This document shows, piece after piece, positions 213 to 54,665 of a stretch of DNA of 64,000 bases. Every line of letters starts with the position of its first letter. The stretch's first letter is position 1. The position numbers were made by a program, and so were the translations under genes. The notes below the pieces were generated by a model. The model saw only the letters and a list, made by a program, of their open reading frames with translations. It had not been told where the DNA came from and ran no database searches. The stretch is from Burkholderiales bacterium (GTDB lineage Bacteria; Pseudomonadota; Gammaproteobacteria; Burkholderiales; SG8-39), in contig DATEDA010000069.1 of the NCBI GenBank assembly GCA_035286595.1, forward strand, positions 10,497-74,496, written 5' to 3'.

Positions 213-548
213 ATGGCAACGAAGCGCAGGAAGGCTGCGAAGAAATCCGCGAAGAAGAAGGCCGGCAAGAAGAAGAAGAAAGGTGCCAAGCGCAGAGCAG
301 TAGCGAAGAAGAAGCCGGCGCGGAAGAAGAAAAAGGCGGCCAGAAAGGCCGCCAAGAAAAAAGCTGCGAAGAAACCCGCCAAGAAGAAAGCCAAGCGACG
401 GATGAAGGCGGCCAAGCCTGCGGCGAGACCAGCGGCGCCTGCCCCGGCGGCGGTTCCTGCTGTACCGTCGACGGCGGCGGCCCCTGGGGCAAAGACTGCC
501 CTGAATCCCGCTGCTGCTTGGCCGTTTCCGACCGGGTCTCGGCCCTAG
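213..548 (+). CDS. Histone H1-like / AlgP-like lysine-alanine-rich DNA-binding protein
   Basis: 111 aa ORF. The N-terminal two thirds are almost only K/A/R repeats (KKAAKK, AKKKA) and the tail is P/A-rich. GGAG lies 7 nt before the ATG (aaGGAGtctgagcATG). Confidence 0.8.
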   Translation: MATKRRKAAKKSAKKKAGKKKKKGAKRRAVAKKKPARKKKKAARKAAKKKAAKKPAKKKAKRRMKAAKPAARPAAPAPAAVPAVPSTAAAPGAKTALNPAAAWPFPTGSRP

Positions 549-1755: not shown

Positions 1756-1817
1756 GGGAGCCCGCCGGGCCGCCCCAAGGGCGAACCCCGAGCGCGTCGC
1801 GCGAGGGTAGTCCAATG
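1756..1817 (+). repeat. Degenerate copy of the ~60-nt sense-oriented repeat unit (family shared with 15577-15704 and 46517-46593)
   Basis: gGGAGCCCGCCGGGCCGCCCCAAGGGCGAACCCCGAGCGCGTCGCGCGAGGGTAGTCCAATG is near-identical to the other units. The leading ATG is replaced by GGG and the trailing TGA by TGG. Confidence 0.85.
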
Positions 1818-1852
1818 GGCGCGCTGGGCCGGCGGTTCGAGGGGCCGATGGG

Positions 1853-3052
1853 CTAGCTGTCCCGGAGGAACCGCGCCATCCGCGCTACTCCTTCCTCCAG
1901 ATCGACGAGCGACCGCGTGTAGGCGAAGCGGACGTGCGACCGGGCGCGGTGCACGCCGAAGTCGATTCCCGGGGTGATGGCAACGCCCGTCTCCTCGAGG
2001 AGACGCAGCGCGAACGACTCGCTGTCGTCGGTGAAACGGGCGCAGCCTGCGTAGACGTAGAAGGCGCCCTCCGGCATGACCGGCACCTCGAACCCGAGCG
2101 AGCGCAGCGCCGGCACCAGGAAATCCCGCCGGCCCTGGAACTCCGCCCGGCGGGCCTCCAGGATCTCGATGGTCTCCGGCCGAAATGCGGCGAGCGCCGC
2201 GTACTGCGCCGGGGCAGACACTGAGATGAACGCGTTCTGCGCGAACCGCTCCATCTCCCGCACGTACTCGGGCGGCGCGACGAGCCAGCCGAGGCGCCAG
2301 CCGGTCATGCTGAAGTACTTCGAGAAGCTGTTGACGACCAGGATCTCGTCCGACATGCTAAGCGCCGTCGGGCGGCGTTCCCCCCCGTAGCTCAGGCCCT
2401 GATAGATCTCGTCGAGAATGGCGATGCCGCCGCGGCGCTCGACCTCGGCAAGGATCGCGCGCAGCGCGTCCTGCGGCACCATCGTCCCAGTGGGATTCGA
2501 AGGCGACGCGAGCACGATGCCGCGCGTTCGCGCGGCCCAGTGCCGGTGCACGTCTCCGGCCGAGAGCTGGTAGTGGGTTCTCTCGTCGGACGGGACGGTC
2601 TTCGCGCGGCCCTCGAACATCCGGACGAAGTGCCGGTTGCACGGATAGCACGGGTCCGGCATCAGGAGCTCGTCGCCGGGATCGATCAGCGCGCCCATCA
2701 AGATCAAGAACGCCCCCGATGCGCCGGCAGTGACCATGATCCGTTCCGGTCCCACGTCCACCCCGTAGCGGTCGGCGTAGAAGCGCGCGAGCGCCTCGCG
2801 CAGCGCCGGGAGGCCGAGCGATGCCGTGTAGCCCATCGGCTCGCGGTGCAGGGCCCGGATCGCCGCGTCGATCACCGGCTGGGGAGCGGAGAAATCGGGC
2901 TGTCCGATCTCCATGTGGATCACGCGCCGTCCTGCCGCTTCGAGCTCGAACGCGCGCCGCTGCACTTCCATCACATGGAACGGCTCGATCGCGTCCATGC
3001 GCGAGGCGAGCCGCAGGCGGGCGTGCTTCGGGACTGACGCGGAGGCGTCCAT
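1853..3052 (-). CDS. Pyridoxal-phosphate-dependent aminotransferase, class I/II (aspartate/aromatic type)
   Basis: ORF-track frame 1853..3136. Motifs include IEPFHVMEV, GQPDF, SPSNPTG and NSFSKYFSMTGWRLG (the PLP-binding lysine motif). The track start at 3136 is a TTG that would overlap pncA, so I prefer the first ATG at 3052 (MDASAS...). Confidence 0.9.
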   Translation of the reverse strand: MDASASVPKHARLRLASRMDAIEPFHVMEVQRRAFELEAAGRRVIHMEIGQPDFSAPQPVIDAAIRALHREPMGYTASLGLPALREALARFYADRYGVDVGPERIMVTAGASGAFLILMGALIDPGDELLMPDPCYPCNRHFVRMFEGRAKTVPSDERTHYQLSAGDVHRHWAARTRGIVLASPSNPTGTMVPQDALRAILAEVERRGGIAILDEIYQGLSYGGERRPTALSMSDEILVVNSFSKYFSMTGWRLGWLVAPPEYVREMERFAQNAFISVSAPAQYAALAAFRPETIEILEARRAEFQGRRDFLVPALRSLGFEVPVMPEGAFYVYAGCARFTDDSESFALRLLEETGVAITPGIDFGVHRARSHVRFAYTRSLVDLEEGVARMARFLRDS

Positions 3053-3125
3053 GCTGTTGAGCGCGACTCGAGCGTTTGATTCTAACCGCTCGGTAGGACA
3101 CGACCCGGAAGCAATGACGCGCTGC

Positions 3126-3767
3126 TCATCGGGCAAGTCCCATAGATCGAGTCCGCGTTACCCTGGCCGCTGCCATATCGCGCGCCGCGGCGGCGAGCGA
3201 GCCGCCGGTGTCGATAGCGCGACACGCGTCCTCGATCACCGTGACCTCAAAGCCCGCCCTCCGCGCATCGATCGCCGACCACGCCACGCAGAAGTCGGTC
3301 GCGAGGCCGCACAGGAACACGTGCCCGATCCCTCGCTCACGCAGATACCCGGCGAGCCCGGTCGTGTGCTTGCCATCCGCCTCGACGAACGTCGAGTAGC
3401 TGTCGACGTTCGGGTGATAGCCCTTGCGCACCACCAGCTGCACGTGCGGGATGACGAGCTCCCCGTGGAAGGCTGCGCCCTCCGTTCCCTGGACGCAGTG
3501 ATCCGGCCAGAGGATCTGCTCCCCGTACCCGAGCCGGATCCGGTCGAACGGCCGCTTGCCCGGATGGCTCGACGCGAACGAGATGTGACCCGGCGTGTGC
3601 CAGTCCTGCGTCAGGACGACGTTGGTGAACTGCCGCGCGAGCCGGTTGATGATCGGCACAACTTCGTCGCCGCGCGGCACCGCGAGCGCACCGCCCGGCA
3701 TGAAGTCGTTCTGCACGTCGACGACGAGGAGCACATCGCGACCGTTCATCGGGCTTGTCCGCGGCAT
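3126..3767 (-). CDS. pncA: Nicotinamidase/pyrazinamidase (isochorismatase family)
   Basis: 213 aa with VVDVQNDFMPGGALAV, WPDHCVQGT and LCGLATDFCV. An alternative start at 3749 (MNGRD) is possible. Confidence 0.85.
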   Translation of the reverse strand: MPRTSPMNGRDVLLVVDVQNDFMPGGALAVPRGDEVVPIINRLARQFTNVVLTQDWHTPGHISFASSHPGKRPFDRIRLGYGEQILWPDHCVQGTEGAAFHGELVIPHVQLVVRKGYHPNVDSYSTFVEADGKHTTGLAGYLRERGIGHVFLCGLATDFCVAWSAIDARRAGFEVTVIEDACRAIDTGGSLAAAARDMAAARVTRTRSMGLAR

Positions 3768-14369: not shown

Positions 14370-14693
14370 TCATTCCCCCGGTCGCGTCTCGCGATGCGCG
14401 CCGCACTTCCAGCAGGTGTCGAACTGTCCCTCGAGCCACTCACGGCAGACGCCGCAGGTCCACGCCGGCGCCGGCGGCGGGGGCCGCCGCCAAGCCTCCA
14501 GAAGCGCCTCGGCGCGCGGCCGGTCGGACTCGCGCGACAGATGGAGCTCGAGCGCGCAGTCGATGAACGGGATCTCGCCGGCGAGCCGCGACAGCAGCTC
14601 GTTCTTCACCCAGCAGCGGATGCCTTCGGCCTCGAGGACGTTCTTGAGGTGATGGATCTCGAGCAGGTTGAGCGAGGTGAGCAGCGGCCTCAT
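14370..14693 (-). CDS. DUF2007-like small protein with C-terminal CxxC...CxxC zinc ribbon
   Basis: 107 aa from ATG 14693, which overlaps the rsgA stop as ATGA. It reads MRPLLTSLNLLEIHHLKNVLEAEGIRCWVKNE...CGVCREWLEGQFDTCWKCG. The upstream part of track ORF 14370..15275 is an off-frame shadow of rsgA. Confidence 0.7.
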   Translation of the reverse strand: MRPLLTSLNLLEIHHLKNVLEAEGIRCWVKNELLSRLAGEIPFIDCALELHLSRESDRPRAEALLEAWRRPPPPAPAWTCGVCREWLEGQFDTCWKCGAHRETRPGE

Positions 14694-15580
14694 CGGTGTG
14701 CGAGCTCGGCGTCGAGGATCCGGTGGAGGAGCTCGAGCCGCCGCGGGTGCACCGCGCCCGCTTCGGCGGCGTCGCGCACCGCGCAACCGGGCTCGGTGCG
14801 GTGCCGGCAGTCGCGAAAGCGGCAACGTCCGGCAAAAGGTGCGAGCTCGGGAAAGCCGCGCTCGATCTCGGCCGGGGTCAGGTGTGCGAGGCCGAACTCC
14901 TGCACGCCCGGCGAATCGATGATCGCGCTCGCCGCGTCGAGACGGTAGAGGCGGGTGTGGCTGGTCGTGTGCCGGCCGGAATCGAGGAAGCGCGAGATCT
15001 CCTGCGTCGTCGCCTGGGCATCTGGAACCAGCGCATTGACAAGCGTCGATTTGCCCATCCCCGACTGCCCGATCAGCACTGTAGTCTCCCCGGCCAGGCG
15101 GCTGCGCAGCGCGGCGACGTCCCGCTTCGCACTGGTCTCGACGAGCGGGTAGCCCGCGCGGGCGAGCGGGGCGAGTCGCTCCCGGAGCGCAACCGTCGCC
15201 GCCTCGAGGTCGGTCTTGTTGACCACGATGAGACCGCGCATGCCCTGCGCGCTGGCGGCGACGAGGACGCGGCACACGAGCTCATCGCTCACGCTCGGCT
15301 CGCCAGCAGTGATCACCGCGACTTGCGTCGCGTTCGCTGCGATCAGCTTGCGGCGATGCGGCGCGGCGCGCAGGAACAGCGTCGCGCGCGGGTCGGGCGC
15401 CTCGATCACGCCTTCGCCCCGGCCGGTGCGCTTGACGAGCACCCGGTCGCCGCACGCGTACTGCGCGTGACGACCGCGCGCGAGGCAGGGAATGAAGTCG
15501 CCGCCGCGGCTCTCGACGAGAAACCGCCTGCCGTACGCGGCCACCACCTGGCCGGAAACGTGCGCGGCGTGCTGGCTCAT
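14690..15580 (-). CDS. rsgA: Ribosome small-subunit-dependent GTPase A
   Basis: 296 aa. Circularly permuted GTPase motifs VVNKTDL and GQSGMGKSTLVNAL. C-terminal zinc knuckle CRFRDCRHRTEPGCAV. Confidence 0.92.
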   Translation of the reverse strand: MSQHAAHVSGQVVAAYGRRFLVESRGGDFIPCLARGRHAQYACGDRVLVKRTGRGEGVIEAPDPRATLFLRAAPHRRKLIAANATQVAVITAGEPSVSDELVCRVLVAASAQGMRGLIVVNKTDLEAATVALRERLAPLARAGYPLVETSAKRDVAALRSRLAGETTVLIGQSGMGKSTLVNALVPDAQATTQEISRFLDSGRHTTSHTRLYRLDAASAIIDSPGVQEFGLAHLTPAEIERGFPELAPFAGRCRFRDCRHRTEPGCAVRDAAEAGAVHPRRLELLHRILDAELAHR

Positions 15581-15642
15581 CGGACTACCCTCGCGCTTGA
15601 CCGCGCTCGGGGTTCGCCCTTGGGGCGGCCCGGCGGGCTCAT
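15577..15642 (-). CDS. Candidate repeat-encoded mini-ORF 2 (21 aa, [21 protein letters not shown])
   Basis: ATG at 15642 is preceded by GAGGG plus 7 nt. Its TGA overlaps the rsgA ATG as ATGA. Translation is unproven. Confidence 0.3.
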   Translation of the reverse strand: MSPPGRPKGEPRARSSARVVR

Positions 15643-15704
15643 TGGACTACCCTCGCGGCTACGGCCGCTCGGGGTTCGCCCTTGGGGCGGCCCGGCGGGC
15701 TCAC
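15639..15704 (-). CDS. Candidate repeat-encoded mini-ORF 1 (21 aa, [21 protein letters not shown])
   Basis: The GTG at 15704 lies 1 nt after the M48 stop. Its TGA overlaps the next ATG as ATGA. Translation is unproven. Confidence 0.3.
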   Translation of the reverse strand: MSPPGRPKGEPRAAVAARVVQ

Positions 15705-15705
15705 G

Positions 15706-16962
15706 CTAACCCGCGGCCCGCGACAGCTCCTGCAGGCGCGCGATTCGCAGCGCCGCCGGCGGATGCGAGTCGTAGAACGCGGAGTGCACCGGGTCAGGCG
15801 TCAGCGTCGCGGCGTTGTCCTGGTACAGCTTGACCAGCGCCCGGATGAGCTCCTGCGCGTCCGCGTGGCTCGCCGCGTACGCGTCGGCTTCGTACTCGTG
15901 GCGGCGGGAGTAGAGGCTGCCGATCGGCTGCAGCAAGAACGTGAACACCGGCACGACCATGAGGAAGAGGAGGAGCGCAACTGCGGTGCTCCGTCGCTCG
16001 ACGCCGAGTGCCTCGTAGAACCAGGGCTGGTCGATCAGATAGCCGAGCGCCGCGAGGAACGCGAGGCTGCCGAGGAACAGCCAGGCGATCCGCTTCCATA
16101 CGTGGTGGCGCCTGAAGTGACCGAGCTCGTGGGCGAGCACCGCCTCGACCTCGCCCGGTCCGAGCCGGGAGAGCAGGGTGTCGAAGAACACGATCCGCTT
16201 CGCGGCGCCGAAACCCGTGAAGTACGCGTTGCCGTGGCTCGAGCGCTTGGAGCCGTCCATCACGAACAGCCCCTTCGAGCGAAACCCGCACTTCACGAGC
16301 AGCCGCTCGATGCGGTCCTTGAGCGCCAGGTCTTCCAGCGGCGTGAATCTGTTGAATAGCGGGGCAATCAGGGTCGGATAGACGACCAACATGACGAGGT
16401 TGAATCCGATCCACGTGAGCCAGACCCAGAGCCACCACAAGCTGCCCATCTGCGCCATCAGCCACAGCACGGCGAGCATCAGTGGCACGCCGATCGCGAG
16501 GCCGAGCACGATGCTCTTCGCGAGGTCAGCGACGAAGAGCGCCGGCGTCATGCGATTGAAGCCGAACCGCGCCTCGATGACGAAGGTCCGGTAGATGGAG
16601 AGTGGCAAGTCGATCGCTCCGGTGATCGCGGCGACGCTCAGGATGAGCGCGATCCCGTGCGCGTAGCCCGCCGGGTCGAACACCCGCGCCCAGAGGTCGA
16701 ACAGCGCCTGCAGCCCACCGCCGAGCGTGAAGGCGAGCAGCACGACCGCCGAGAGCAGCGCATCGACGCTGCCGAACCGGGTCTTCGCGGCGGTGTAGTC
16801 GGCGGCTTTCTGGTGGGCAGGGAGCGCCACGCTCTCGGCGAAACCGGGCGGGACCGCGTCGCGGTTCGCGGTCACGTAGCGGATGTGGCGGGACGCGAGC
16901 CAGATCCGCGTCGCAGTGGCGATTGCGAGCGCGGCGAGGAAGGCGGTCGTGAAGGGATGCAT
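15706..16962 (-). CDS. M48 family zinc metallopeptidase (Ste24/HtpX-like, multi-TM)
   Basis: Frame of ORF 15706..16995. Zinc motif [10 protein letters not shown] and several TM segments. The track start is a TTG, so I prefer ATG 16962 (MHPFTTAF...). Confidence 0.9.
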
Positions 16963-17026
16963 GCGGCGGGACAGGTGCCGTGTGAGACAATCCAATTCTA
17001 GTTGGACCGCCGCAAAATCAAAAGCG

Positions 17027-40041: not shown

Positions 40042-43020
40042 ATGTTAGTTACCTCGATCGAAGTCCCCGAGGGGGGCACGGTGGGAAACCGAACGACTAC
40101 AACGAGACTGCTGGCCCTTCTGACGCTCGCGTTGCTGCCGTTGGACGTGCTGGCGGCCGGTCTGGGGCGGCTCGCCGTTTTGTCCGGCCTGGGTCAGCCG
40201 CTGCGCGCCGAGATCGAGGTCGTGTCCCTGCAGCGGGGCGAAGCCGAGTCGCTGAGCGCGAGGATCGCGACGCCCGACGCGTTCCGGGAAGCGGGTGTCG
40301 AGTATGGAGCGGCCGTACCGCGTGTCCGCACCGTGCTCGAGCGCCGGCCCAACGACCGGTACGTGATCGTCCTCTCGACCCCGCAGCCGGTCGAAGAACC
40401 GTTCCTCGATCTGCTCGTGGAATTGAACTGGGCCTCGGGTCGGCTCGTGCGGCAGTACACGTTCCTGCTCGATCCCGTGGACTACCGGGGGCCCCAGCCG
40501 ATCGCCGCCGCACCGTCGCGGCCTGCGACGACCGAGGTGCGGCCGGTCGAAGCGCCACGGCCCCCGGAAGTCAGCGCGGCCGCACCGGCCGCACCCGCTG
40601 TTGCGCCGCCTGCGGCGTCCGCAGAGCCGGCGCCGTCGGCGCCTGTGGCGCCACCACCCGCCGAGACGCCAGCCGCGCAAACGCCAGCCACACCGGCACC
40701 GGCACCGGCACCGGCTGCGCCAGCGTCGGCGGCGCAAGCACCGGCCGATGCGCCCAAGCTGGCGAGCGAGCCCGTCGCCACCTATGAAGTGCAGAAGGGC
40801 GACACGCTGAGCAAGGTCGCGTTGCAGTACAAACCCGAGGGCGTCACGCTGCAGCAGATGCTCGTGGCCCTTTATCGCGCGAACGAGGACGCGTTCATCC
40901 AGAAGAACATGAACCTCGTCCGCGCGGGGCGCGTGCTCACGATCCCGGACCGCGAGGCCGTCGAAGCCGTCGCCCCCGCCGATGCCGGGAAGCTCTTCGT
41001 CGCGCAATGGCAGGACTTCAACGAATACCGCGCCAAGCTCGGCGGGGCAATCGCGGCGGCGCCGGCCCAGACCGAGGCGCCGCAGCAGCGCGCGGCCGGC
41101 CGGATCACCGAGCCGCCCGAGGCGACGGCAGCCGCGCCGAAGGCCGCACCGCGCGACGAGCTGCGGGTCTCGAAGGCGGACGATGCGGCGAAGAGCGCGA
41201 AAGCCGCCGCCGCGGCCCGGGCGGACGATCTCGCGGCGCGCGAGCGCGCGCTCCAGGAAGCGAGCTCGCGCGTCGGCGACCTGGAGCGAAACGTCAAGGA
41301 TCTCCAAGGTCTCGTCGAACTGAAGAACAAGCAGCTTGCCGACTTGCAGAAGCAGGCGGAGGCGGTGAAGGGTGCAGCGGCGAAGGCCACCGACGCTGAA
41401 GCCGCGAAGGCGGCGGCGGCGAAGGCCACCGCAGCGGCGAAGGCCACCGACGCTGAAGCCGCGAAGGCGGCGGCGGCGAAAGTCGCCGAGGCGGAGGCCG
41501 CGAAGGCTGCAGCGGCGAAGGCCACCGCGGCGGAGGCCGCGAAAGCCGCCGCAGCGGCGGCTGCCAAGGCGCCCGAGCCGGCGAAGGCCGTCGAGGTCGC
41601 GAAGGCGCCCGAGGCGCCCAAGGCCGCCGAGCCGGCACCGACCGCGCCCGCAAAGGCGCCCGAAGCGCCGAAAGCCGAGGCGCCCAAAGCCCCCGCGCCG
41701 CCCAAGGCTGCGGCGGCACCGAAGAAGCCCGCGCCGCCCCCGCCTCCCGAGCCGAGTCTCGTCGAAGCGATCCTGGACGAGCCGCTCTACCTCGCCGGCG
41801 GAGGGGGCGGGATCCTCGCCCTCCTGATCGGGGGGTATCTGTGGCGAAAAAAGCGCAGCGCCAAGCTGGAAAATAGCCTGCTTGGCGTGACGACCACCGA
41901 TTCGAGCTCGGTCTTCGGCAGCACTGGCGGGCGCAGCATCGACACGGGTGGCAGCTCGCTCCAGACCGACTTCAGCCAGAGCGGGATCGGCGCGATCGAC
42001 ACCGACGAGGTCGATCCGGTCGCGGAAGCGGACGTGTACATGGCCTACGGCCGCGACGCCCAGGCCGAGGAGATCCTCAAGGAAGCGCTGCTGAAGGACC
42101 CCAACCGCCAGACGGTGCGCGTGAAGCTCCTCGAGATCTACGCGGCGCGCAAGGACCTGAAGGCGTTCGAGACCACGGCCGGAGAGATCTACGCCGCGAG
42201 CGGCGGTCAGGGGCCCGAGTGGCAGAAGGCGATCGAGCTCGGGCTCTCGATCGACCCGAGCAATCCGATGTACGGCGGGGGCGGCGGCCGGCGGGAGGCT
42301 GGTGGCCGCCCGCCCGAGCGCGACACCGTGGTGCTCCCGGCCGCCGGTGGCGCAGCGGCCGCGATGGCGAGCGACCTCGCGTTCGACCTGGCCGGTAGCA
42401 AGGCACCGCCGTCGATCGACTTCGATCTGGGTGGCGGGGGCCGGGGTGCCGCCGCGGCAGTGCCCGACCTCGCGCTCGACGTGGCGAGCCAGGCGCCGGC
42501 GGATCTCGGCTTCGACCTCAACCTCGGTGGCGACTCGCAGAAGCCCGCCGTCGAGGAGGCGAGCGATTTCTCCCCGAGCGGCACGTTCATCATGGACGCG
42601 GCCACGAAGAAAGCGGTCAGCGACATGGTCGAGGCGCAGGGCGCGCCCGGGTCACTCGAGATCGATTTCGAGCTGCCGGGGACGAAGGGCGGCGCGACGC
42701 CCGGGGAGCAGACCGCCAGGATGCAGGCCGCACAGCCGGCCAACGTCACCGAGATCGACTTCAAGCTCGGTGAGCCGACCAAGCCGGCCGCGGCCGCAAT
42801 GGATCTCGGCGGGATCAGTTTCGATCTCGGCAAGGGCGGCGGCGAGGGTGCGCCGGTCGACGCCCGCTGGCAGGAGGTGGCCACCAAGCTCGACCTCGCC
42901 AAGGCGTACGAGGAGATGGGGGACAAGGATGGTGCGCGCGAGCTGCTGAACGAGGTCCTGAAGGAGGGCGACGCGGCCCAGCAGCAGCAGGCGAAGCAGA
43001 TGCTCGCGGCAATCAGGTAG
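40042..43020 (+). CDS. fimV: FimV/HubP-family polar peptidoglycan-binding protein
   Basis: 992 aa track ORF; GTG 40081 (preceded by GAGGGG) is the more likely start. FimV N-terminal motif LGRLAVLSGLGQPLRAEIEV. LysM (YEVQKGDTLSKVA...AGRVLTIP). A/K/P/E-rich repeats. One TM segment. FimV C-terminal motif LDLAKAYEEMGDKDGARELL. Confidence 0.9.
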   Translation: MLVTSIEVPEGGTVGNRTTTTRLLALLTLALLPLDVLAAGLGRLAVLSGLGQPLRAEIEVVSLQRGEAESLSARIATPDAFREAGVEYGAAVPRVRTVLERRPNDRYVIVLSTPQPVEEPFLDLLVELNWASGRLVRQYTFLLDPVDYRGPQPIAAAPSRPATTEVRPVEAPRPPEVSAAAPAAPAVAPPAASAEPAPSAPVAPPPAETPAAQTPATPAPAPAPAAPASAAQAPADAPKLASEPVATYEVQKGDTLSKVALQYKPEGVTLQQMLVALYRANEDAFIQKNMNLVRAGRVLTIPDREAVEAVAPADAGKLFVAQWQDFNEYRAKLGGAIAAAPAQTEAPQQRAAGRITEPPEATAAAPKAAPRDELRVSKADDAAKSAKAAAAARADDLAARERALQEASSRVGDLERNVKDLQGLVELKNKQLADLQKQAEAVKGAAAKATDAEAAKAAAAKATAAAKATDAEAAKAAAAKVAEAEAAKAAAAKATAAEAAKAAAAAAAKAPEPAKAVEVAKAPEAPKAAEPAPTAPAKAPEAPKAEAPKAPAPPKAAAAPKKPAPPPPPEPSLVEAILDEPLYLAGGGGGILALLIGGYLWRKKRSAKLENSLLGVTTTDSSSVFGSTGGRSIDTGGSSLQTDFSQSGIGAIDTDEVDPVAEADVYMAYGRDAQAEEILKEALLKDPNRQTVRVKLLEIYAARKDLKAFETTAGEIYAASGGQGPEWQKAIELGLSIDPSNPMYGGGGGRREAGGRPPERDTVVLPAAGGAAAAMASDLAFDLAGSKAPPSIDFDLGGGGRGAAAAVPDLALDVASQAPADLGFDLNLGGDSQKPAVEEASDFSPSGTFIMDAATKKAVSDMVEAQGAPGSLEIDFELPGTKGGATPGEQTARMQAAQPANVTEIDFKLGEPTKPAAAAMDLGGISFDLGKGGGEGAPVDARWQEVATKLDLAKAYEEMGDKDGARELLNEVLKEGDAAQQQQAKQMLAAIR
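41374..41487 (+). repeat. 57-bp tandem duplication inside fimV (19-aa unit AAAKATDAEAAKAAAAKAT)
   Basis: Units at 41374-41430 and 41431-41487 are identical over the first 51 nt. Degenerate A/K/E copies continue to about 41570. Confidence 0.75.
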
Positions 43021-45706: not shown

Positions 45707-46534
45707 ATGTCCCGCATCTCGACCATCTTCGAGCACCTCGCGCGCGCCCGGCGCAAGGCCCTCATCCCGTTCATTACCGCGGGCGATCCGTCGCCGCCGG
45801 CGACGGTGCCGCTCATGCACGCGCTCGTGAAGGCCGGGGCCGATGTCATCGAGCTCGGCGTGCCGTTCTCCGACCCGATGGCCGACGGGCCGGTGATCCA
45901 GCGCTCGAGCGAGCGCGCCCTGAGGCACGGAATCAGCCTGGAGACGGTGCTTGGCTACGCCACGGAGTTCCGGAAGCGCGACGACGCGACCGGCATCGTG
46001 CTCTTCGGCTATGCGAATCCGATCGAGGCGATGGGCGTCGAGCGGTTCGTCGAGCGCTCGCGCGCGGCGGGAGTCGACGGCGTTTTGGTCGTGGACTACC
46101 CGCCGGAGGAGTGCGGCCCGTTCGCGGAGTTGGTGAAGAAGAATGGAATGGATCTCATTTTCCTTCTCGCCCCCACCTCCACCGAATCGCGCATCGAGCG
46201 GATTGTCGGCCTGGCGAGCGGCTACATCTACTACGTCTCCCTGCGCGGGGTCACCGGCGCGTCGCACCTCGACGTTGCCGACGTCGCGGCCAGGCTCGCC
46301 GCGATCCGCCGCAAGACCTCGCTTCCGGTCGGCGTCGGTTTCGGGATTCGCGACGGCGAGACCGCGCGCGCGGTCGGTGCGGTGGCCGACGCGGTGGTGA
46401 TCGGCAGCCGTCTGATTCAGGAGATGGAGGAAGCGCCGCCCGGCGCAGCGATCGAGCGCGCGGGCGCGTTCCTCGCCGGGATCCGTCGGGCGCTCGACGG
46501 CGCGGCGCAGGTTGCGGCGAGGGTAGTCCAATGA
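45707..46534 (+). CDS. trpA: Tryptophan synthase alpha chain
   Basis: 275 aa with [31 protein letters not shown] and VSLRGVTG. The last 6 codons and the stop lie in repeat-element sequence. Confidence 0.95.
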
Positions 46535-46589
46535 GCCCGCCGGGCCGCCCCAAGGGCGAATCCCGAGCGCGTAGCGCGAGGGCAGTCGA

Positions 46590-46593
<4 letters not shown>
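46517..46593 (+). repeat. Partial unit plus one full ~60-nt repeat unit at the trpA/accD junction
   Basis: GCGAGGGTAGTCCAATGAGCCCGCCGGGCCGCCCCAAGGGCGAATCCCGAGCGCGTAGCGCGAGGGCAGTCGAATGA. Same family as 1756-1817 and 15577-15704. Confidence 0.9.
46531..46593 (+). CDS. Candidate repeat-encoded mini-ORF (20 aa, [20 protein letters not shown])
   Basis: Its ATG overlaps the trpA TGA as ATGA, and its TGA overlaps the accD ATG as ATGA. Translation is unproven. Confidence 0.3.
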
Positions 46594-47453
<860 letters not shown>

Positions 47454-53586: not shown

Positions 53587-54081
53587 TCAGCCGGCGACCT
53601 CCGTGCGCTCGATCACCACGTCCTCGAGCGGCACGTCCCCGTGCGCGCCGCGGCGTCCGGTCTTGACGCCCTTGATCCGGTCGACCACGTCCTGCCCCTC
53701 AACGACGCGGGCGAACACGCAGTAGCCCCACCCCTGGGGGGTGGGGACGGTATGGTCGAGAAAGCCGTTGTCGTTGACGTTGATGAAGAACTGGGCGGTC
53801 GCCGAGTGCGGGTCGGAGGTGCGCGCCATCGCGACCGTGTAGCGGGCGTTCTTGAGCCCGTTCGCGGCCTCATTCTTCACCGCCGTCTTGGTGGGCTTCT
53901 GCTTCATCCCCGGCTCGAAGCCTCCGCCCTGGATCATGAAGCCGTCGATCACGCGGTGGAAGACCGTGTTGGCGTAGTGCCCGCCCTCGACGTAGGCCAG
54001 GAAGTTCTTGACGGTCTCCGGCGCGCGCTGGGCGTCGAGCTCGAGGGTGATGGTGCCGAGATTGGTGTGCAGCTTGACCAC
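53587..54081 (-). CDS. ppiB: Peptidyl-prolyl cis-trans isomerase B (cytoplasmic cyclophilin)
   Basis: 164 aa with [15 protein letters not shown] and [10 protein letters not shown]. No signal peptide. Confidence 0.93.
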
Positions 54082-54092
54082 GAGCGCCTCCG

Positions 54093-54665
54093 CTATCTCT
54101 TCGCCGCGACGATGGCCGCGGATTCGATGATCACCGGATCGCGCGGCACGTTCTGGTGCCCCCGGGCGTCCCCGGTCGGCAGCTTGGCGATCTTCTCGAC
54201 CACGTCCATTCCCGAGACGACCTTGCCGAAGACCGCGTAGCCGTAGCCCTGCGCCGTGGCCCCGCGGAAGTTGAGAAAGTCGTTGTCCTTGAGGTTGATG
54301 AAGAACTGCGCGCTCGCCGAGTGCGGATCCGGCGTACGCGCCATGGCGACGGTGCCGTAGTCGTTCTTCAGACCGTTCGCGGCCTCGTTCTCGACCGAGG
54401 CGCGGGTCGGCTTCTGCTGCAGGTCCTTGTTGAAGCCGCCGCCCTGGATCATGAAGCCGGGGATGACGCGGTGGAAGCTCGTGCCGTTGTAATGGCCGTC
54501 CTTCACGTACTGCAGGAAGTTCGCCACCGTCTTCGGCGCCTTGTCCGGGTAGAGCTCGATGACGATCGCACCGTGGTTGGTCCGGAGCTCGACCCGAGGG
54601 TCGGCGGCGAGCGCGGCGTGCGCGGTGGCGAGCGCGAGTCCGAGCGCAATGAGCAGGCTACGCAA
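54093..54665 (-). CDS. ppiA: Peptidyl-prolyl cis-trans isomerase A (periplasmic cyclophilin)
   Basis: 190 aa. Signal peptide [20 protein letters not shown], then [15 protein letters not shown]. Confidence 0.9.

Follow-up and report, generated by a model that had tools for sequence, protein, structure and literature searches.

The 64,000-nucleotide (nt) stretch of a Burkholderiales bacterium that was analyzed here (assembly GCA_035286595.1, contig DATEDA010000069.1, positions 10,497 to 74,496, in the following referred to as the window and numbered from its first letter) carries on its minus strand a gene for an M48 peptidase followed by rsgA. The junction between these genes is occupied by two tandem units of a 62-nt repeat, each with a 21-codon open reading frame (ORF), here termed mini-ORFs; on direct reading, the minus strand runs ...gggTTAGcGTGAGCCCGCCGGGCCGCCCCAAGGGCGAACCCCGAGCGGCCGTAGCCGCGAGGGTAGTCCAATGAGCCCGCC...GCGCGAGGGTAGTCCGATGAGCCAGCAC. 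The features of the junction are:

15706 to 16995, minus strand: M48 peptidase gene, ORF of 429 amino acids (aa) with the stop codon TAG at 15706-15708; Pfam PF16491 and PF01435
15643 to 15704, minus strand: repeat unit 1, 62 nt; covariance model 53.9 bits, E = 2e-10
15639 to 15704, minus strand: mini-ORF 1, GTG start, 21 aa, from ORF listing and translation
15675 to 15702, minus strand: conserved 5' core of unit 1 (GAGCCCGCCGGGCCGCCCCAAGGGCGAA), exact core match
15650 to 15673, minus strand: unit 1 hairpin CCC-GA-GCGGC / GCCGC-GA-GGG, a helix covarying in the family
15581 to 15642, minus strand: repeat unit 2, 62 nt; covariance model 76 bits, E = 2e-15
15577 to 15642, minus strand: mini-ORF 2, ATG start, 21 aa, from ORF listing and translation
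15613 to 15640, minus strand: conserved 5' core of unit 2, exact core match
15588 to 15611, minus strand: unit 2 hairpin CCC-GA-GCGCG / CGCGC-GA-GGG, a helix covarying in the family
14690 to 15580, minus strand: rsgA, 296 aa, ATG start, from the ORF listing; Pfam RsgA_GTPase

The geometry that a preliminary description had assigned to this junction is exact to the base: the M48 stop TAG is followed after 1 nt by GTG, which opens a 21-codon ORF, an ATGA, a second 21-codon ORF and a second ATGA that forms the start of rsgA. The GTG at 15702-15704 is the first codon of unit 1 and at the same time the native rsgA start codon of relatives. The ATG of unit 2 (15640-15642) shares bases with the TGA of mini-ORF 1 (caATGAgc), and in the same -4 overlap the ATG of rsgA (15578-15580), which comes from unit 2, shares bases with the TGA of mini-ORF 2 at 15577-15579 (cgATGAgc). 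Both units finish as GAGGG plus 7 nt plus ATG, and the Shine-Dalgarno (SD)-like GAGGG lies within the 3' arm of the respective hairpin (15650-15654 in unit 1 and 15588-15592 in unit 2, the latter 7 nt 5' of the rsgA ATG).

The two 62-nt units at rsgA are an insertion. Homologues of RsgA and AccD were fetched individually together with their genomic context (loci are labeled L throughout). In the relatives L119, L120 and L121, with RsgA proteins of 94, 88 and 85% identity, the junction reads TAG-c-GTGAGCCAG with nothing inserted, such that M48 stop, one base and rsgA GTG are contiguous (...GGGTTAGC GTGAGCCAGCGC...), while the window contains an extra 124 nt (2 x 62) between two TGAGCC direct repeats. 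Because of this insertion, the native GTG and its ribosome-binding site now open mini-ORF 1, and ATG and GAGGG of rsgA come from unit 2. The earlier claim that the repeat supplies the SD sequence and the start codon of rsgA is thus borne out, with an SD-like tract and ATG residing in unit 2 and the repeat-free relatives using their native GTG. Occupancy of the site varies further. L129, a 96% relative, carries one unit instead of two, which is identical to unit 2 of the window, and L130, an 85% relative, features a decayed 57-nt in-frame unit at the M48-rsgA site (344-404, plus strand). In many of the RsgA homologues P0002-P0060, an A comes after a GTG or TTG start codon (first residue V or L); these are NTGA junctions with the upstream M48 gene, and such a junction is the type of site that the repeat occupies.

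Within the window, the 28-nt core occurs exactly four times, compared with zero occurrences expected by chance, and a covariance model run with filters off returned the same four units and no other convincing match. Same-family units had been reported at two further loci, and both were recovered:

46531 to 46593, plus strand: single 59-nt unit between trpA and accD; covariance model 81.7 bits
46517 to 46530, plus strand: remnant of a unit 3' end (GCGAGGGTAGTCCA) forming the last trpA codons; 11/18 identity to the unit 3' end
1756 to 1818, plus strand: single unit between an SLT-domain gene and a convergent aminotransferase gene; covariance model 71.4 bits

At trpA-accD, the first ATGA of the unit includes the trpA stop TGA (46532-46534) and the terminal one the accD ATG (46590-46592), with an ORF of 20 codons between the two. 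Here, too, filled and empty sites exist side by side: L126, L127 and L128 (relatives with 90 and 88% identical AccD) keep a native ATGA overlap, while the site is filled with one unit in the window as well as in L123 and L124 (97% and 92% relatives), the unit of the 92% relative terminating in TTGA. The unit fills this native overlap in the way in which the two units fill the rsgA site. Empty-site relatives show GGCGCGCGGTCCA where trpA of the window carries the unit 3'-end remnant. The covariance model finds no unit at the empty sites, both empty sites of the window lineage (rsgA and accD) already carry TGAGC, and occupancy is polymorphic between close relatives whose proteins are 85-97% identical. 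The copy at 1756-1818 is of a different kind, as it lies 11 nt 3' of the stop codon of the SLT-domain gene, has no ATGA at either end and supplies no gene start. The statement that units always lie in sense orientation to their flanking genes therefore holds for most copies and fails for this one, which is sense to the upstream SLT-domain gene and is followed by a convergent gene (1853-3136). A putative fifth copy around position 917 on the minus strand, with four mismatches, was dismissed as spurious, the covariance model finding only the four units convincing. A weak match inside accD (46942-47007, minus strand, 15.8 bits, E = 0.097) probably reflects chance.

To gather the family beyond the window, we used an exact 21-mer of the core and one genome per species. 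At least 118 stretches across the Burkholderiales contain this 21-mer, and the carriers include Rubrivivax, Ideonella, Rhizobacter, Piscinibacter, Methylibium, Rhodoferax, Variovorax, Polaromonas, Ramlibacter, Orrella and Casimicrobiaceae. The most frequent form measures 60 nt, ATGAGCCCGCCGGGCCGCCCCAAGGGCGAATACCGGAGTGCGCAGCACGAAGGTACTCCA|GTGAGC. Only direct tandem arrays are formed; they reach five units with a spacing of 59-63 nt, which amounts to 60 nt in 38 of 46 pairs and to 62 nt in the window only. Array length probably changes by slippage or unequal recombination. Most members outside the window are in-frame 60-nt units and not stop-start cassettes, a point that the preliminary description had overlooked. 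Plasmids also carry the element. On plasmid 4 of Variovorax sp. SRS16 (L131, 401-464), a divergent unit sits at the phnJ-phnK junction, with PhnJ stopping in the ATGA of the unit, and PGAP starts PhnK at the ATG of the unit, whereby the protein acquires a repeat-derived N-terminal extension of 20 residues. A 65-nt ATGA...GTGA subfamily is found in Diaphorobacter sp. JS3051 plasmid pDCB2 and in V. paradoxus VAI-C, where it is annotated as a 61-nt intergenic gap; in VAI-C, the site is the junction of two genes for branched-chain amino acid ABC permeases. Further cultured carriers are Piscinibacter sakaiensis 201-F6 (L061) and Methylibium sp. Root1272 (L034). A search of a phage collection yielded no match to the repeat.

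Gene context was evaluated for 125 arrays with 168 units using a codon-usage gene caller trained on the loci. The upstream neighbor is encoded on the same strand in 102 of 114 arrays and the downstream neighbor in 103 of 113. Among 86 co-directional gene pairs, the unit lies in sense orientation in 83 and antisense in 3 (p = 3e-21). The upstream gene terminates on the TGA of the first NTGA of the unit in 73 of 114 arrays, and in 58 arrays the downstream ORF begins with the start codon at the unit end. The strong sense orientation and the linkage to start and stop codons, which had been put forward as a check, support this part of the initial reading. Directly after the terminal start, AGC is found as second codon in 62 of 83 arrays as opposed to 28 of 107 control native NTGA overlaps (p = 2e-11), and the start codon itself is GTG in 40, ATG in 36 and TTG in 7 cases, a mixture that fits a first base donated by the unit. 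The upstream flanks are not unit-like, with 6.4 of 18 positions agreeing with the unit 3' end as compared with 6.7 of 18 at control NTGA junctions; insertion guided by homology was dropped as a candidate, the trpA tail with its unit remnant being the exception among the flanks. Ten downstream proteins from a random sample of 20 are unrelated to each other (E1-beta, two ABC ATPases, MiaA, PlsX, ChaC, DAHP synthase, PrmA, MarR and Ddl).

The reading frame is under constraint. Among unique units, lengths of 60 nt (58 units), 59 nt (17), 62 nt (8), 65 nt (1) and 74 nt (2) contrast with 61 nt (4) and 63 nt (1). The 60-nt units keep the frame of the downstream gene, those with lengths of 2 modulo 3 (59, 62, 65 and 74 nt) have an ORF that ends in the TGA of the terminal NTGA, and the +1 class, from which ribosomes would enter the gene in the wrong frame, is rare. 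A length of 62 nt has been reached via different indels in different units. Starting from the first unit, the ORF continues into the gene in 52 arrays and terminates within the final NTGA in 19. Termination at an internal junction, which results in chains of mini-ORFs, is seen in the window, L081 and L086, and several other fates with stops at +120 or +123 correspond to a second, divergent 59- or 62-nt unit. The first junction of an array is NTGA in 111 of 121 arrays as opposed to 22 of 43 internal junctions (p = 5e-8), and internal junctions are dispensable where units are in frame. A protein search with the peptide of two units returned at least 281 small called proteins (40, 41, 60 and 61 aa), of which the best 120 all comprise 74 aa or less. 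Those sampled are made up of units in frame with each other, with a frame-shifted one at the end that terminates in ...RVVQ, ...STKVVQ or ...STKVSQ, a pattern that would match a terminal 59- or 62-nt unit. Taken as indirect evidence, the frame constraint suggests that the mini-ORFs are translated and coupled.

In-frame units raise the question of whether the peptide itself matters, as a functional product or as an N-terminal tag (SPPGRPKGE..., resembling an AT-hook GRPKG). Units of 60 nt are indeed fused to real proteins, PhnK of SRS16 being annotated from the ATG of a unit, and the ABC ATPase of L102, the IlvD-like protein of L030 and the L090 protein must carry the extension because the terminal start codon has been lost. 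Nevertheless, we regard a selected peptide as very improbable. The peptides of window-type and 60-nt subfamilies agree in the first ten residues only and then diverge by frameshift, the host proteins are unrelated, no excess of synonymous substitutions is seen in the unit, and searches of Pfam and NCBIfam with unit peptides gave no model match. A further point is the hairpin that includes the SD-like tract in its 3' arm. RNAalifold on the unit alignment returned an invariant 5' hairpin only and missed this covarying one, and the helices were therefore tested by hand. Among 89 unique units, pair 44-56 is U-A in 45, C-G in 30, G-C in 11 and broken in 3, and pair 43-57 further shows A-U, U-A and G-U. 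These compensatory changes convert Ser-...-His to Ser-...-Arg or Arg-...-Pro, so that the hairpin covaries at the expense of the peptide. In addition, window-type units exhibit two changes from C-G to U-A in the outer CCC/GGG pairs, and L086 has Watson-Crick pairs in place of the tandem G-A mismatches.

Alternatively, the repeat may act primarily as an RNA or DNA structure, e.g., as an mRNA stabilizer, a processing site, a source of a BprJ-like small RNA or a site for protein binding, with the start and stop features being secondary. The hairpin covariation is in line with this possibility. Furthermore, a second, 5' helix, which encloses a conserved loop of 13-15 nt, GC(C)GGGCCGCCC(C)AA, changes sequence between subfamilies (UGAGCCC/GGGCUCA, UGAGCGC/GCGCUCA and AGUGCCC/GGGCACU, with a U-run/A-run in BRE, a Bordetella repeat; few sequences are informative), and BRE gives rise to an 80-nt RNA in B. 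pertussis (PMC3110155). A structural element requires neither single-nucleotide registration of start and stop codons nor a modulo-3 constraint on length, though, and counts of 11 G-U versus 9 A-C pairs do not assign the structure to one strand and hence do not single out RNA. Rfam yielded no match at gathering threshold for the whole window and nothing but miRNA noise at E <= 10 around the locus; a resemblance to hammerhead or other small ribozymes was dropped in view of a core that does not match them and of the lack of Rfam hits. On balance, a primarily structural role appears unlikely.

The preliminary description had pointed to the Ser-Pro-Pro-Gly start of the mini-ORF peptides and suggested that the repeats report translation status. 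In this case, the repeat would be a regulatory module of the host in which ribosomes stall when EF-P or translation capacity is limiting, gating reinitiation on rsgA and other genes. Of 142 unique units, 111 encode PPG even though the search pattern left its first Pro free, the SD-like tract lies within a covarying hairpin, the core is highly conserved across genera and rsgA is a ribosome-assembly gene. Weighed against this are APG, TPG or other variants in 22% of the unique units, downstream genes without a common function, the decay of start and stop signals inside arrays, the prevalence elsewhere of in-frame units that have no stop/restart step, and the presence or absence of units at the same site in relatives with 85-97% identical proteins. 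An EF-P-dependent gate is accordingly considered improbable, less so than a functional peptide and more so than a structural element.

We favor, as reasonably probable, the reading that the element is a repeat of the BRE superfamily, built like the MIRUs of mycobacteria and tolerated because translation passes through it. A short structured repeat, interspersed and tandemly amplifiable in Burkholderiales, was inserted at TGAGC(C), starting from the second base of the rsgA start codon, and left the native ribosome-binding site and GTG in place to open a 21-codon mini-ORF. The 3' end of each unit comprises an SD-like purine tract, 7 nt and NTGA, so that a ribosome that terminates on UGA would sit on the next AUG (-4 overlap) and may reinitiate on unit 2 and then on rsgA. 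A ribosome translating the mini-ORF would open the hairpin that sequesters the SD-like tract, and ribosomes would keep the inserted RNA covered. Hand-over would proceed via the stop/start overlap in units of 59, 62, 65 and 74 nt and via in-frame read-through in units of 60 nt. Since translation is passed through, insertion should cost the host little, and the family would therefore accumulate, like the MIRUs of mycobacteria, at start codons and where co-directional genes meet in an ATGA.

Several observations weigh against this reading or limit its basis. Translation of the mini-ORFs, termination on UGA and reinitiation on AUG are deduced from geometry. The sample was ascertained with an exact 21-mer, the gene calls stem from a purpose-built caller, and copies within arrays are non-independent. 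Neither a mobilizing enzyme nor terminal inverted repeats nor an unambiguous target-site duplication came to light at the loci studied, and the decayed unit of L130, given that closer relatives are empty, needs either recurrent insertion or precise loss. Furthermore, the 21-nt core is identical across several families of the order, and the helix-closed conserved loop is common to the units and Bordetella BRE; this degree of conservation exceeds the needs of a passenger and points to a trans-acting partner or a function. It may be that the repeat is not passive and that its helix-closed 13-15-nt loop and SD-sequestering hairpin form an order-wide module recognized by a conserved factor, either as a mobile element of a new kind homing to start codons (TGAGC) or as a domesticated gate on upstream translation or EF-P status. 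We give this possibility limited weight, somewhat more than a purely structural role.

If translation does pass through the units, they would represent a second, independent and much larger natural case of start-codon repeats with their own translational hand-over signals, and would support the idea derived from MIRUs that mobile DNA can insert at no cost owing to translational coupling. With their two frame classes and many independent length variants, the units amount to a natural mutational series for termination-reinitiation. The start codon and ribosome-binding site of housekeeping genes have been changed, from GTG to ATG in the case of rsgA. Annotation is misled as well, resulting in 'hypothetical proteins' of 40-61 aa, spurious N-terminal extensions such as that of PhnK in Variovorax sp. 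SRS16 and wrong start codons. In addition, the units are candidate variable-number tandem repeat (VNTR) markers in Burkholderiales.

Repeats of other types are also present in the window. The large ORF at 40108-43020, whose L123 orthologue carries PF25800 (FimV_N), contains tandem coding repeats rich in Ala, Lys and Glu, whose periods are 9, 15 and 24 nt (41356-41714, plus strand). A 300-nt direct repeat with 74% identity is located at 53674-53973 and 54189-54488 (plus strand, spacing 515 nt), and short Lys/Ala-rich coding repeats of the type AAGGCnGCnAAGAAA, as in histone-like basic proteins, lie at 231-392.

Among known systems, REP and BIME elements are short, GC-rich, structured repeats at operon junctions that can affect mRNA fate, and in these respects they resemble the units described here. 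REPs are palindromes of 20-40 nt that occur in both orientations and as inverted pairs, are species-specific and are not registered to codons. The present element differs by its direct tandem arrays, a sense bias of 83:3 and nucleotide-exact positions. Closer in one aspect are the Rickettsia palindromic elements (RPEs), described as selfish in-frame repeats tolerated in translated sequence (Ogata 2000, cited in PMC3184786), as the 60-nt units likewise insert in frame and add 20 residues to protein N-termini. According to that account, however, RPEs measure 100-150 bp and lie within genes instead of on start codons, and they are presented there without an SD/start/stop cassette.

The nearest architectural counterpart is provided by MIRUs, which are portrayed as mobile mycobacterial repeats that insert at start codons and contain an internal ORF coupled at -4 nt (Supply 1997, via PMC12548453; PMC3184786); sites with and without the repeat are shown, as are direct repeats of four nucleotides (PMC3184786). 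As far as these accounts go, both elements are direct repeats of 40-100 bp, single or in VNTR-type tandem, lying in sense between co-directional genes. In both, the repeat-internal ORF overlaps the stop and start codons of the neighbors by 4 nt (in our case at rsgA and accD), the last unit carries the SD sequence of the downstream gene, and orthologous sites are either filled or empty, with short direct repeats at the ends, here TGAGC(C). The likeness is one of architecture. MIRUs are actinobacterial, and the present element differs from them by its strongly conserved core and covarying hairpins, its spread over several families of one order and its two frame classes, in-frame with 60 nt and stop/start with 59, 62, 65 or 74 nt. 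Because its host belongs to the Burkholderiales, it is filed as an analogue of MIRUs and not as a member of that family. With this precedent, and with a related betaproteobacterial repeat known since 2011 (BRE, PMC3110155), the suggestion that the cassette at rsgA is an undescribed coupling module is not supported.

BRE was reported from Bordetella and several Comamonadaceae as a repeat of ~90 bp with partial copies of 40-60 bp, occurring in tandem with variable copy number, overlapping ORF ends and being transcribed, its function then not being known (Hot 2011; PMC3110155). In the literature searches by DNA core and peptide there was no match to the units, BRE was covered only by Hot 2011 and Delihas 2011, and no paper was found on a start-codon cassette architecture in Betaproteobacteria. 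A hidden Markov model (HMM) built from 10 published BRE copies matched the loci with E = 0.046-7.7, which is not significant against the 60-nt units. Bordetella BREs are 75-91 bp long, are bounded by T-runs and have an extra CCCCCTCGGGGGG hairpin, whereas the present units measure 59-62 nt and are bounded by NTGA without the length or T-rich ends of BRE; nor has BRE been described with start, stop or SD signals or with a position at start codons. On the other hand, both are chromosomal repeats of Betaproteobacteria, often in tandem with variable copy number, that overlap ORF ends, and both comprise a helix-closed 5' module, CGGGCCGCCC(C)AAGG(G)C, followed by GC-rich hairpins, a module also present in the published Bordetella copies. 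BRE-like long forms occur in genomes with 60-nt units (L049, 7431-7507 and 7360-7429, minus strand; L006, 1015-1093, plus strand; L067, 1449-1518, minus strand) and read ..GGCCGCCCGAAGGGCACU..GCCCCCGCGGGGGGCAGCGAAC..GCGUGGGGGCC. The L049 and L006 sites matched by the BRE HMM are also matched by the covariance model of the 60-nt unit (E = 3e-4 to 6e-3), unlike the L067 site, which is matched by the BRE HMM only. In L087, the long variant can be aligned across both the 5' module and the CCCCCTCGGGGGG hairpin, and together with those of L100, L049 and L006 it bridges BRE and the short units. We file the element as a putative short relative of BRE, within a BRE superfamily, and as a probable functional analogue of MIRUs.

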